Shown: in pieces, positions 6,001 to 9,000 of the stretch
Numbering within the stretch: position 1 is the first letter of the stretch
Layout: every line of letters starts with the position of its first letter
Virus record (IMG/VR): IMGVR_UViG_2718218135_000002
Location: 1 to 38,324 of that record
Direction: 5' to 3' (one strand)
DNA from: a virus
Taxonomy: Duplodnaviria; Heunggongvirae; Uroviricota; Caudoviricetes
DNA: 38,324 bases
Position numbers: made by a program

Positions 6001-9000
6001 TCTGGTTTATATGAGCGAAGCATTTCGCTTATTGGGTCGCAACGTTTGCAGAGGCGATCAACTTCACTGTTGATTCGTTCGTAATCATCATCGGTAAAAC
6101 TTGCGATGATTTGCGATATTTCACGCTTATCATTCAGAGTCAGAATCATCATCTTTCTCCTGTTCTTTGTGCTGATTGAGCATTTCTTTCATCTGACGAA
6201 TGAATTCTTCGTCTGACCAGCTATCTGTAAAACTCATTTCCTGCGATACCACGGAGTGTTGATCGCTGATTTCATCGCTTTATTTGCTTCAAGCCACATT
6301 TTGGAATCACCAATAAATCTGGCTATTACTGCTTTGTTCTGTGCAGCACGAAGCATCTGGTGATTAATGGCTATTTCATTGCGCATAACGCCTCCAGTTG
6401 TTTCTTTGCTGCTCTGATTAATTGTTTAACTCGGCGTGATAATTCAGATTCGTGCGGGTAGAAAGCGGACATGACGCCGCTACCCGCGAGCTGAAAGTGC
6501 ATCATGGGTAACTCCTTATATTTGATTGCATAACGAAAACGCCTCGAGTGAAGCGTTATTGGTATGCATATAAAAAGGCCCTCACACTGGAGGGCAAAGA
6601 AGACTTCCAATAATCAGAACAAGTCGGCTCCTGTTTAGTTACGAGCGACATTGCTCACATAGCAGACTCGCAAATCTGCTATAGGTGCTTATTCGCATCG
6701 CATGACAACATCAAATTTTTCGAGATTACTTTGTCGCAACAATCCTTCTTCTACGCGGTCAGCTTTTCTATAATTATCAAATTCGAAATGTTTAATTACT
6801 TCTTTTGTTTCTCGCTCTATAACTTCAAAAATGTATTTCCTATTCATCATTCTTCCCCAAGAGCTTTTCTGATTGCTGCAAGACCTTTATTAACAGCTCC
6901 ATACCATTCTGGATATGTTGTCTTTGTTCTATTTTTGGTTTGCTTAAGTAATAACTGAAGTGCTTCGAGAAGGTCAGGTGCTGCCGCTATTAGATTGGCA
7001 TCTTCAATGCATTGAACTTCCTCACAGATTGCAATATACGAACGCCAGCCTGCGCCATTTTCAAGTGAGTCTGCCTGGATGATTTTAATCTCACCGCCAT
7101 CCATCATTATTTCCCACTTACCTTTAGTACCTTTGAATTCCATATTCACCTCTATGCTTGCTGCCAAAACAATGAACCATCCGGAAATTCCAGATAGTTC
7201 ATAATTCACTCTTCAATACTTCCAACTTACTAATCGCCGATAGATATCCGCGCTGATAGGGCATCATCATTCCTTCGAGCTTGCCACTTCTTAACTCCTC
7301 CCTGAGCAATTGTATTGCTTGATCAATAACCTCTGCCTTAGCGTCCTTTATGGCTTGCTTGCGGGGCTTTGCTTTCTGCTTTGGCAGATTTCTCAAGCAT
7401 GATGGAATGTATGTCTGATTCATCACTTACCTCGCTGTAACCTGCTTACTTGTACGATGACCAGCTGCGAAAAGCGCAACTTCTGGCAGGCAGACAGTAC
7501 CACTCTTCAAATCAGCCTCCTTTTTCTTTTTCTATATCAAAAAGCTGCTTTGCTTTTGTGACTAAAAGCAAAAAAGCCTTCTCGCTAATGAGCAGCATTG
7601 CCGTTCATCCTGAACCCGCCGCGCTCCCGACGCATGGTTTAAAGACGCGCCGTTCGTCTATGGGTTTATGATGTACTTAAAGTTCATTAATGTAAAGTAC
7701 CAATAGTACATTTTATGGGTATAAAAAGCTCACTACATCATAAGTTAGTGAACTTTAAGGAAATTTATTTTTATCCGAATCGCTTGTAATCGATTGACTG
7801 CCTAATGAGGACTTTGGCTAGAATGTGAAGTTGCTCTTCTTCACCTTCTTCTATGTACCATCGATCATAAGCGGCATTGTCAGAGATGACGGCAAGCCTG
7901 TTCTTTTGCATTTGCAGGCGCTTAACGTGCATTGTTTTCCCGTATACAAACACATAAATGCCATCGCCATCAAAACAGGTTATGGATACATCAACAAAGA
8001 TCTCATCTCCCGGATTGATGGTTCCCTCCATGCTGTCACCGCGAACCGTGATGACTTTTACGCTTTCCTGTGGCCTTCCATTAAATAAAATTCTTGCCTG
8101 CTCGGTCGTATATTCAATTGCTCTTATCTTTTCTATAAATTCATTGGAAACCATGGTTCCTGGCCCGGCGCTCGCCTGAACATCCAATACATCAACACGA
8201 TAATAATCATTTGATCTTGATAGATGATTTACCGTGATACCGTCATCATCAGCATAGCCATGCAGATATGCAGCAGTAGTTCCCAGCACCGAAGCCAGAG
8301 ATTCCATCTTGTCTTTTCTTGGTATTGACTCCCCGTTGAACCATTTACTAATGGCTTTTGGTGTGACCTTAAGCCTGACAGCTAAATCAGCCTGCCTACC
8401 ATGCAAAGGTAATCCCGCTTTATCACAGGCCAGCGCAAGCCTCTGCGAGAAAGTTTCACGCTCTTTCTGTTGAACCATAAGTTCAACTATATTAGGTATT
8501 GACTGTACTATCAGTTCCGTCATAATATGAACCATAAGTTCACCACAGGAGAGAAGCATGAACGAAGTTACGTTTGGAGAAGTTATCAAATCCGTTCGAG
8601 TTTCTGTTGTGGCTGATGTTTGTGGACTTACGCCAAAAGCCATCTATAAGTGGCTTGAGCGTGGTTCTCTGCCGCGTACCGAGTTCACTGGTGAAACCGA
8701 ATATGCGGATAAGATCGCCAAGGCATCAGGCGGCAAGTACTCAGCAGCACAGATTCGCCGTATCGGTAAACAGCAGTTTGTTATGTAATAAAAATGTACT
8801 TTTAGTACCGAACGGCCCGGTATACGGTCGGGTGCCCGGCGTGGTCAAGGATGACTGTCAATGGTGCACGATAAAAACCCAAATTATTTACCTATGGAGA
8901 TAGTAAGAAATGACACAAACAAGTTACAGCAAGCCAACACAGCGAGAAATTGATCGCGCTGAAACTGATTTACTCATCAACCTGTCAACGCTTACCCAGC

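Follow-up and report, generated by a model that had tools for sequence, protein, structure and literature searches.

Three small genes on the minus strand

The window analysed in this study is the whole stretch of DNA presented above, 38,324 nucleotides in length. Its minus strand carries three small open reading frames in the region examined, termed here genes A, B and C. Gene A (7199..7423) encodes a basic protein of 74 aa with a pI of 9.7 (phrog_5305), gene B (6847..7143) an acidic protein of 98 aa with a pI of 5.0 (phrog_1273 / PF27050), and gene C (6689..6850) a protein of 53 aa with a pI of 5.8 (phrog_6949). An earlier, sequence-only reading of the window had described three ORFs overlapping end to start; the calls for A and C were confirmed, but the middle ORF turned out to be too long. 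The frame proposed for it, 6847-7209, is a mechanical ORF opened by a GTG codon, the first 22 codons of which lie outside gene B. We place the start of B at the ATG at position 7143 on the basis of its homologues, the PHROG match and the RefSeq annotation: the PHROG profile match spans residues 22-120 of the long ORF, the family HMM aligns to 6850-7143, and the B homologue is called by both RefSeq/PGAP and GenBank at 297 nt, i.e. 98 aa. This ATG is preceded by a strong Shine-Dalgarno sequence, AGAGGTGA, and the 55 nt on its 5ʹ side consist of a hairpin and a linker that are also found before unrelated genes in other phages. With the start of B at this position, genes A and B are separate, with 55 nt between them, and the overlap is confined to B and C, where the stop codon of the former and the start codon of the latter share 4 nt (ATGA). 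The ATG of gene A has a GAGG Shine-Dalgarno sequence located 6 nt upstream.

All three are genuine, evolutionarily conserved protein-coding genes and go beyond chance ORFs, as indicated by the excess of third-position variation, by dN/dS values between 0.03 and 0.3 and by PHROG matches with E<=6e-33. The variable sites at codon positions 1/2/3 numbered 16/5/23 in A, 54/41/86 in B and 10/6/28 in C, and dN/dS was about 0.12 for A, 0.09-0.3 for B and 0.03-0.2 for C. Gene A matched phrog_5305 over its full length (E=4.8e-38, profile positions 1-71 of 71), as did gene C with phrog_6949 (E=7.1e-39, positions 1-52 of 52), and gene B matched phrog_1273 at positions 3-101 of 103 (E=5.9e-33). The corrections that come out of the analysis are a middle gene of 98 rather than 120 aa and a 53-aa gene that is real despite receiving no annotation from PGAP.

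A left operon with put sites and a remnant of N

The three genes belong to the PL operon and lie upstream of cIII in a variable accessory/exclusion slot, as the sequence-only reading had proposed. In related phages the same slot holds other genes, among them nun (HK75), ral (ECP1), and Ea10/DUF2528, TolA-like and Smchd1-like genes. The N gene that had been assumed to precede them is, however, absent from the window. The PL promoter (7668..7696, minus strand), identified by a consensus scan, overlaps the OL operators and agrees with the HK75 pL at 28 of 29 positions. It is followed by putL (7590..7652, minus strand), which is identical to the annotated putL of HK75 (63/63) and replaces nutL and N, and then by a 77-nt remnant of the 3ʹ end of N (7427..7503, minus strand). 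This remnant comprises the last 24 codons and the stop codon, is identical to the corresponding end of the mEpX2 N gene, and is enclosed by a 27-aa ORF with a TTG start (7427-7510, minus strand) that has an AAGGAGG Shine-Dalgarno sequence upstream; the ORF listing contained no N ORF between cI and gene A. A putR site (8809-8870) is identical to the annotated putR of HK75 at 61 of 62 positions. The sequence thus presents the put context of HK022, with putL and putR following PL and PR and the N gene absent, and the immunity region is, by these features, of the HK022/HK75 type; the prophage, being without an N gene, is predicted to use HK022-type put sites. A search of Rfam at E<=1 over 6000-9500 returned only a chance miRNA match. 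The putL region folds no better than shuffled sequence (z = 0.16), and its identification accordingly rests on the sequence identity with HK75.

DNA of HK75 type was found at 6300-6656 and 7530-7787, and the backbone of HK75/HK97 type resumes at 6656. The 873-bp insert at 6657-7529 exactly replaces the nun gene of the HK75 backbone. While the putL-to-tL interval of HK75 holds nun, that of the window holds, in order of transcription, the 77-nt N remnant, gene A, the hairpin with its linker, gene B and gene C. Two tL-type intrinsic terminators, found by a terminator scan at 6536..6595 (minus strand) between C and cIII, match annotated terminators of HK75. From PL to C, PL was the only promoter-like site on the coding strand in a crude consensus scan, which a weak internal or lysogen-active promoter could escape.

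The hairpin and linker downstream of gene A

At the stop codon of gene A begins a hairpin of 14 bp, 5 of them GC (7172..7202, minus strand), which is followed by UUGUUUUGG and matches the terminator pattern. The calculated folding energy of its RNA is -22.6 kcal/mol (z = -3.5), and the hairpin is essentially identical in 80/80 A-bearing loci, whichever gene lies downstream. We consider it a candidate tL1-like intrinsic terminator that would form the 3ʹ boundary of an N-A module. The adjoining linker (7144..7171, minus strand) is conserved and non-coding, and it is this linker that ends in the Shine-Dalgarno sequence AGAGGTGA. In 80 viral contigs, at least 14 different first genes were found after the common linker, each joined to it exactly at the ATG. 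The linker is a junction for interchangeable downstream genes, with B as one of many alternative cassettes, and the slot past the 'N - A - hairpin' module serves as a clearly delimited point of exchange for this cargo.

The arrangement resembles the mosaic junctions between genes of lambdoid phages considered in the modular genome hypothesis, in that exchangeable genes begin, with their start codons, precisely where a conserved segment stops. Within B there is another junction, at the invariant LIAAAPDLLEAL, where N- and C-terminal variants have been recombined. The hairpin-linker is a specific and well-populated example of such junctions and introduces no new principle.

Comparison with known phage proteins

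In the sequence-only reading, none of the three proteins had been assigned to a recognisable family. This proved correct as far as the known genes of the slot are concerned, A, B and C being unlike Ral, SieB, Ea10, N and Nun, but each of them belongs to a PHROG family and the homologues of B match PF27050. Pfam-A searches at E<=1 assigned none of the three proteins to a family, and scans of the three with NCBIfam and PADLOC models returned nothing meaningful. Against the Ral protein of ECP1, none of the three scored above 15.8 bits in BLASTP and family-HMM comparisons; for Ea10/DUF2528 there was neither a Pfam match nor similarity to the Ea10 of mEpX2, and comparison with three N alleles and with HK75 Nun detected no similarity. 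N and Nun proteins carry an N-terminal arginine-rich RNA-binding motif. SieB has about 190 aa and segments that span the membrane, whereas A, B and C have 53-98 aa and no predicted transmembrane segments (maximum 19-residue Kyte-Doolittle mean <=1.11). The three genes are similar to ral, sieB, orf28 and ea10 of lambda in their operon, relative position and small size, and in A-bearing phages this slot can be filled by ral or Ea10; the encoded proteins differ from their lambda counterparts in scoring no more than 16 bits against Ral and Ea10 and in having nothing like the membrane segments of SieB. These lambda genes are dispensable for plaque formation (PMC10695390).

Structure prediction, suggested earlier as a check, yielded simple helical hairpins for A and B, and the fold matches were uninformative. 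A Foldseek search of the AF2 models of A and B against the PDB retrieved only generic helical hairpins (E>0.6), the best matches in BFVD were unnamed phage proteins, and PDB sequence and profile searches gave nothing below E=0.04. No literature was found on the PHROG or Pfam accessions or on sequence motifs, and the motifs did not occur in the supplementary files examined from an accessory-gene screen (PMC12373910).

Gene B belongs to a very large phage family

The B family comprises 14,553 representative clusters (E<=1e-3; clusters at 50% identity), and its genes occur in temperate as well as in virulent phages. The B protein of the window is 92-97% identical to proteins with a precomputed Pfam match to PF27050.1, a match shared by at least 176 homologue clusters. 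Like the other members of phrog_1273 / PF27050, which are phage and prophage proteins of about 100 aa that include ORF18 of ST104, it bears the signature GTxGxW, LIAAAPDLLEAL and AAIxKALG. In the alignment, GTxGxW falls in an N-terminal beta segment, LIAAAPDLLEAL in an invariant helix accompanied by a variable hairpin tip, and the C-terminus is conserved as AAIxKALGEE. The only feature that sets B apart from other enterobacterial members is the presence of gene C downstream, as in a minority of them. The AF2 model of B has a pLDDT of 72, with the N-terminal third poorly modelled. The helical hairpin is modelled with confidence and has the LIAAAPDLLEAL helix as its anchor; its tip is hypervariable, and the N-terminal domain is shuffled.

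In ten B-family clusters the source names were all 'hypothetical protein' or absent. Among 126 neighbours of diverse B genes no consistent partner was found, the commonest neighbour being a DksA-like zinc finger (5/126). Several resemblances were considered and rejected: a likeness of B to ead/Ea22-like proteins obtained an hhalign probability of 0.4%, and the similarity of the LIAAAPDLLEAL helix to the cIII helix KQLIRAAKKQLEAL reached 5.7 bits in a search of 7 sequences, which is not significant. The long B relatives P0187 and P0254 are low-complexity repeat proteins whose Pfam matches are spurious.

Gene C and its association with gene B

Gene C has only 12 homologue clusters. At 63 of 71 C loci a full B-family gene lies directly upstream with a stop/start overlap of 1-4 nt, at 7 loci a 3ʹ remnant of B takes its place, and the remaining locus begins at a contig edge. 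C is an addition of narrow range, carried along with the 3ʹ end of the B gene, and since its start codon overlaps the stop codon of B, the two are probably translationally coupled. Both proteins are 96% identical to proteins of mEp043 and mEp213 deposited as 'hypothetical protein'.

This association raises the question of whether B and C work together as a module of two proteins, for instance with C as an effector or toxin that is checked or helped by B, and with A unrelated to either. No C gene was seen that lacked the 3ʹ end of a B-family gene immediately before it, and the pairing persists even through a swap of the N-terminal and middle segments of B, as in the mEp213 variant. The asymmetry, by which B often stands alone and C never does, is also reminiscent of toxin-antitoxin logic. 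However, most B genes have no C: it is present at only 3/15 of the closest B loci, and the B family has approx. 14,500 clusters against 12 for C. Moreover, C is intact behind a B remnant of merely 32 codons at 7 loci, so full-length B is not needed and the link may merely deliver ribosomes. Neither protein matches toxin or antitoxin families in Pfam, NCBIfam or PADLOC. Taken together, a functional B-C module seems rather doubtful.

For B, one could further imagine a protein made early that binds a variable target in the host, is diversified in an arms race and acts, for example, in counter-defence or host takeover; C would then be its translationally coupled partner in enterobacterial lambdoid phages. 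We regard this as an unlikely proposal; were it true, the function of B would annotate thousands of phage genes.

Gene A and its linkage to N

Gene A has 41 homologue clusters, and its product is 100% identical to an mEpX2 protein deposited as 'hypothetical protein'. The protein consists of a Lys/Arg-rich N-terminal tail, with 8 K+R within the first 30 residues, followed by a two-helix hairpin (AF2 model with pLDDT 86, helices 21-45 and 55-73). The linkage of A to N was counted only in IMG/VR loci with evaluable upstream sequence (77 loci). In these loci A comes immediately after a particular N allele or what is left of it: a full N was found in 65 of them, a short N in 7, and putL with an N remnant in 5; gene A was intact in 77/77, whatever the state of N.

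The start of A lies 3 nt past the stop codon of N in 65/77 of these loci, which, together with the basic tail, might suggest that A is a factor linked to N that assists transcription or antitermination, or that it takes over the function of N/Nun at the head of the PL operon. In agreement with this, A holds the first coding position behind putL in the window, and in HK225 the first gene past the annotated promoter is an A homologue with 49% identity. On the other hand, the gene stays intact where putL is present and N is missing, the window included, and the put-mediated antitermination of HK022 requires no phage protein. Homologues of 38-42% identity are also encoded by virulent siphoviruses (among them Sasha, swi2 and SeSz-2) and by the Pseudomonas phage PS-1; in Sasha, the one context examined, the homologue is flanked by terminase genes, and its neighbourhood contains no N-like gene. 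The tail of A is Lys/Pro-rich and does not form an Arg-rich motif, and the protein has no similarity to N or Nun. A role of A connected with N is thus quite unlikely.

An assignment of A to DUF7446 was rejected, as the match in the longer A homologue P0135 falls in a non-homologous C-terminal extension. This extension matches a DUF7446-like cassette that is located after A in other loci.

Possible expression as exclusion genes

Given the slot, at least one of A, B and C might be a defence or superinfection-exclusion gene that the prophage expresses and that replaces nun functionally. The gene that the insert exactly replaces in the HK75 backbone, nun, is an exclusion gene, and sieB sits in the equivalent region of lambda (PMC10695390). 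We find this improbable, since the insert has no promoter-like site on its coding strand in the crude consensus scan, the PADLOC search gave no match (best E=0.015 over 14 residues), and the proteins, unlike SieB, have no membrane segments. Genes of the A and B families are also present in virulent phages, where there is no lysogen for them to protect. With regard to HK022/HK75 nun in particular, gene A has neither Nun similarity nor the Arg-rich motif.

The three genes are not inherited as a unit

The idea that A, B and C are conserved together, which the sequence-only reading had put forward for checking by co-occurrence, does not hold. Among 5,426 complete E. coli genomes, the contiguous arrangement is present in 8, as compared with 293 that have some part of it. 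A lies within 5 kb of C in only 4/71 C-bearing viral contigs, and B adjoins A in only 2/80 A-bearing contigs. Isolated phages split the set as well: mEpX2, mEp506 and ECP1 have A and lack B and C, mEp043 has B and C and lacks A, and in APC_JM3.2 two other genes lie between A and B. All three families occur in mEp213, but there the B variant and C are placed upstream of a second N-A pair. The three genes of the window do share an orientation and adjoin each other in a variable slot of the PL operon, and the contiguous arrangement in the 8 E. coli genomes is 92-99.6% identical in spite of different immunity regions; with the counts above and a conserved terminator-like hairpin separating A from B, the triad is nevertheless refuted as a conserved unit, and an exclusion or host-takeover triad acting as one functional unit at the ral/sieB slot is extremely improbable.

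Proposed origin and expected expression of the locus

The locus is an ordinary lambdoid accessory gene set and not a new three-gene system. Overall, we think it probable that A, B and C are three independently assorting accessory genes from the early-left region of a P22-like prophage with HK022/HK75-type immunity, transcribed from PL in the lytic phase. The 'N - A - hairpin' module would have been left over once nutL and most of N had given way to a cI-PL-putL segment, and the B cassette would have been joined, precisely from its start codon on, to the conserved linker. Upon induction or infection, RNA polymerase is expected to start at PL and to be modified by the putL RNA; the modified polymerase could then read through the hairpin at 7172-7202, so that A, B and C would be made as early proteins. 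The three are small, soluble and presumably cytoplasmic. Their targets are most likely macromolecules of the host or of the phage, and they would most likely serve as non-essential host-takeover or counter-defence factors and not as exclusion proteins expressed by the prophage. The post-hairpin slot, together with the very large B family, offers reasonable candidate targets for screening for anti-defence and host-takeover functions. In lambda, all genes of the PL operon but N are dispensable, and ral matters solely on restricting hosts (PMC10695390), which supports the accessory reading of the slot.

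Gene boundaries and coding status

The three ORFs that the sequence-only reading had claimed in the PL operon were confirmed in part, and the interpretation placed on them was partly supported. All lie on the minus strand, and we refer to them as genes A, B and C in the order of transcription. Their coding nature was indicated by the variable sites at codon positions 1/2/3 (16/5/23 for A, 54/41/86 for B and 10/6/28 for C), as well as by dN/dS values of 0.03-0.30 across the three genes. All of them are under purifying selection, and C is therefore a real gene, although it is not called by PGAP. 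Gene A (7199-7423, minus strand) encodes a basic protein of 74 aa (computed pI 9.7), and its ATG is preceded at six bases by GAGG. The middle ORF is open from a GTG at 7209 and had been read as a gene of 120 aa (6847-7209); however, the PHROG profile matched only residues 22-120, the family HMM aligned with 6850-7143, the homologue is 297 nt long in both GenBank and PGAP annotation, and AGAGGTGA provides a Shine-Dalgarno context ahead of the ATG at 7143. Thus, gene B spans 6847-7143 (minus strand) and encodes 98 aa. The ATG of gene C (6689-6850, minus strand, 53 aa) overlaps the stop codon of the upstream gene as ATGA. The supposed end-to-start overlap of all three genes is confined to B and C, since 55 nt lie between A and B.

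Organization of the PL operon

The prophage is P22-like and Sf101-like, with a repressor, operators and PL of the HK022/HK75 type, and its PL operon is a mosaic. PL (7668-7696) is located upstream of putL (7590-7652), which matches the annotated HK75 site exactly, and putR (8809-8870) follows cro with 61/62 identity. As established for HK022, put RNAs act in cis and need no phage protein. The window contains no N gene; a 77-nt N remnant (7427-7503, minus strand), identical to the 3ʹ end of mEpX2 N, lies directly upstream of A. The HK75-type DNA ends at 7530 and restarts at 6656, just ahead of two tL terminators and cIII. In HK75 the equivalent interval is filled by nun, whereas the window has the N remnant, A, B and C there. 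The earlier placement of the genes between N and cIII was therefore incorrect, but a variable accessory slot of the PL operon had been rightly recognized.

We also noticed that the putL/putR module is fused to an mEpX2-type N remnant (regions 7427-7787 and 8809-8870); apparently, the put module has taken the place of nutL together with the 5ʹ two-thirds of N. Phage APC_JM3.2 has this junction as well. The remnant forms an intact 27-aa ORF (MKSGTVCLPEVALFAAGHRTSKQVTAR; 7427-7510, minus strand), whose TTG start lies 5 nt past an AAGGAGG Shine-Dalgarno sequence and whose end lies 3 nt ahead of the ATG of A. The ORF may be translated, and could then bring ribosomes to A or give a peptide that retains the N C-terminus.

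A conserved hairpin and linker downstream of gene A

A 14-bp hairpin (7172-7202; fold of -22.6 kcal/mol, z = -3.5) is followed by UUGUUUUGG. The hairpin and linker (7144-7202, minus strand; consensus GGCAGCAAACCACTTATTTGAGGTGAGATATG) were located 3ʹ of gene A in 80/80 viral contigs with this gene (L088-L167) and were almost invariant, with at least 14 different first genes downstream. The linker ends exactly at the start codons of these interchangeable genes, and thus defines a sharp cassette-exchange point. By its sequence, the hairpin looks like a tL1-equivalent terminator closing the immediate-early N-A transcript in N-bearing phages. The commonest gene after the linker (19/80 loci) encodes an extremely acidic, aromatic-rich 28-aa peptide, MEEEFEEFEEHPQDVMEQYQDYPYDYDY, also present in phage ECP1 (L243:2296-2382) and annotated just as hypothetical.

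Protein families and folds

Gene A belongs to phrog_5305, with 41 homologue clusters in Escherichia, Shigella, Enterobacter, Citrobacter and Leclercia, and with distant relatives (38-55% identity) in HK225, an Erwinia phage, virulent siphoviruses and a Pseudomonas phage. In its AF2 model (pLDDT 86), two long helices come after a tail rich in Lys and Arg. Gene C belongs to phrog_6949, with only 12 homologue clusters. Gene B is a member of phrog_1273, and a precomputed match to PF27050.1 is carried by its close homologues; when 1.84 billion cluster representatives were searched with a profile, 14,553 relatives were returned at E<=1e-3, nearly all of about 100 aa, which share GxW near the N-terminus, (E/D)AN.LIAAAP(D/E)LLEAL and A.AAI.KA.G. 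In the enterobacterial members, an invariant LIAAAPDLLEAL helix is flanked by differing, recombined N-terminal domains and middle segments (alignment A2 of the B family), and the variable middle segment forms the tip of a helical hairpin that was confidently modelled by AF2. Some distant members (P0233, P0255 and P0261) are tandem two-copy fusions. With the hypervariable tip of its modelled hairpin, the very large B family could comprise arms-race binders of host targets, although we regard this as rather improbable.

No meaningful match to A, B or C was found in Pfam, NCBIfam, PADLOC or PDB, and Foldseek searches with the A and B models returned generic helical hairpins only. When A, B and C were compared directly with Ral, Ea10, Nun, three N alleles, cIII and Kil, no similarity was seen. 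All three had already been deposited as hypothetical proteins, and the variable slot that they occupy is of a known kind.

Predicted expression and possible function

Upstream of A, B and C, PL is the sole promoter-like site on the coding strand, so these genes should be silent in the lysogen. Their transcription would begin right after induction or infection, by a polymerase that putL has modified and that would read through the hairpin at 7172-7202; translation of C is probably coupled to that of B, and A may be coupled to the 27-aa ORF. In lambda, every PL-operon gene but N is dispensable, and ral matters on restricting hosts only (PMC10695390). Together with the many alternative cargos in the slot, this leads us to see A, B and C as host-interaction genes that are not essential; host takeover or counter-defence is, by analogy, a tentative assignment of their functional class, which we hold at somewhat below even odds.

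Alternatively, B and C could form a functional pair, which we consider unlikely. We ran the family HMMs on six-frame ORFs of IMG/VR contigs and evaluated 77 A loci and 71 C loci. A full B-family gene was directly upstream of C, with stop/start overlap, in 63/71 C loci. However, C is intact behind a truncated B (only a 32-codon 3ʹ remnant) in 7/71, the remaining locus (1/71) starting at a contig edge, and many B genes occur without C, which follows B in only 3/15 of the closest B loci.

An N-linked transcription factor is a still less probable role for A: the gene lies 3 nt past a full N gene in 65/77 loci and past a short N in 7/77, but also past putL and an N remnant in 5/77. It is intact in all 77, N-less put phages included, and related genes occur in virulent phages. 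Exclusion expressed from the prophage is equally doubtful, given the lack of an internal promoter-like site, of a PADLOC match and of a membrane segment in A, B or C.

A single triad of A, B and C is effectively refuted, by the very absence of shared conservation that the sequence-only reading had named as counting against it: some part of the region occurs in 293/5,426 complete E. coli genomes but the contiguous arrangement in only 8/5,426, A is within 5 kb of C in only 4/71 C loci, and B is the first gene after the linker in only 2/80 A loci. Among isolated phages, A is present in mEpX2, mEp506, ECP1, mEp213, JEP4, phi296/367, Stx2_5044 and APC_JM3.2, B in mEp043, APC_JM3.2 and several Salmonella phages including ST104 (orf18), and C only in mEp043, mEp213 and APC_JM3.2. 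Two other genes separate A from B in APC_JM3.2, and in mEp213 a B variant and C lie upstream of a second N-A pair. The PL operon of mEp213 (L006:1647-3632) reads N, a 62-aa Cys-rich ORF, the B variant, C, second N and A, the two N genes being different.

Other features of the window

A mechanically called 79-aa ORF (6371-6610, minus strand) over-extends cIII, its 5ʹ part overlapping the two tL terminators; since only residues 37-73 carry the Pfam cIII domain, the genuine cIII is a protein of 44 aa (6371-6505, minus strand) that begins with MMHFQLAGSG. Similarly, a mechanical 290-aa ORF (7771-8643, minus strand) over-extends the HK75-type cI repressor (235 aa, minus strand), which starts at about 8478 with MVQQKERETF. 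Next to a 613-aa ORF (32426-34267, plus strand) and to an ORF of integrase size at the end of the window are three ORFs of 475, 306 and 120 aa in one orientation (34314-37017, minus strand). Their sizes and position make the three a candidate gtr-type O-antigen modification cassette beside the tailspike, in a Sf101-like arrangement.
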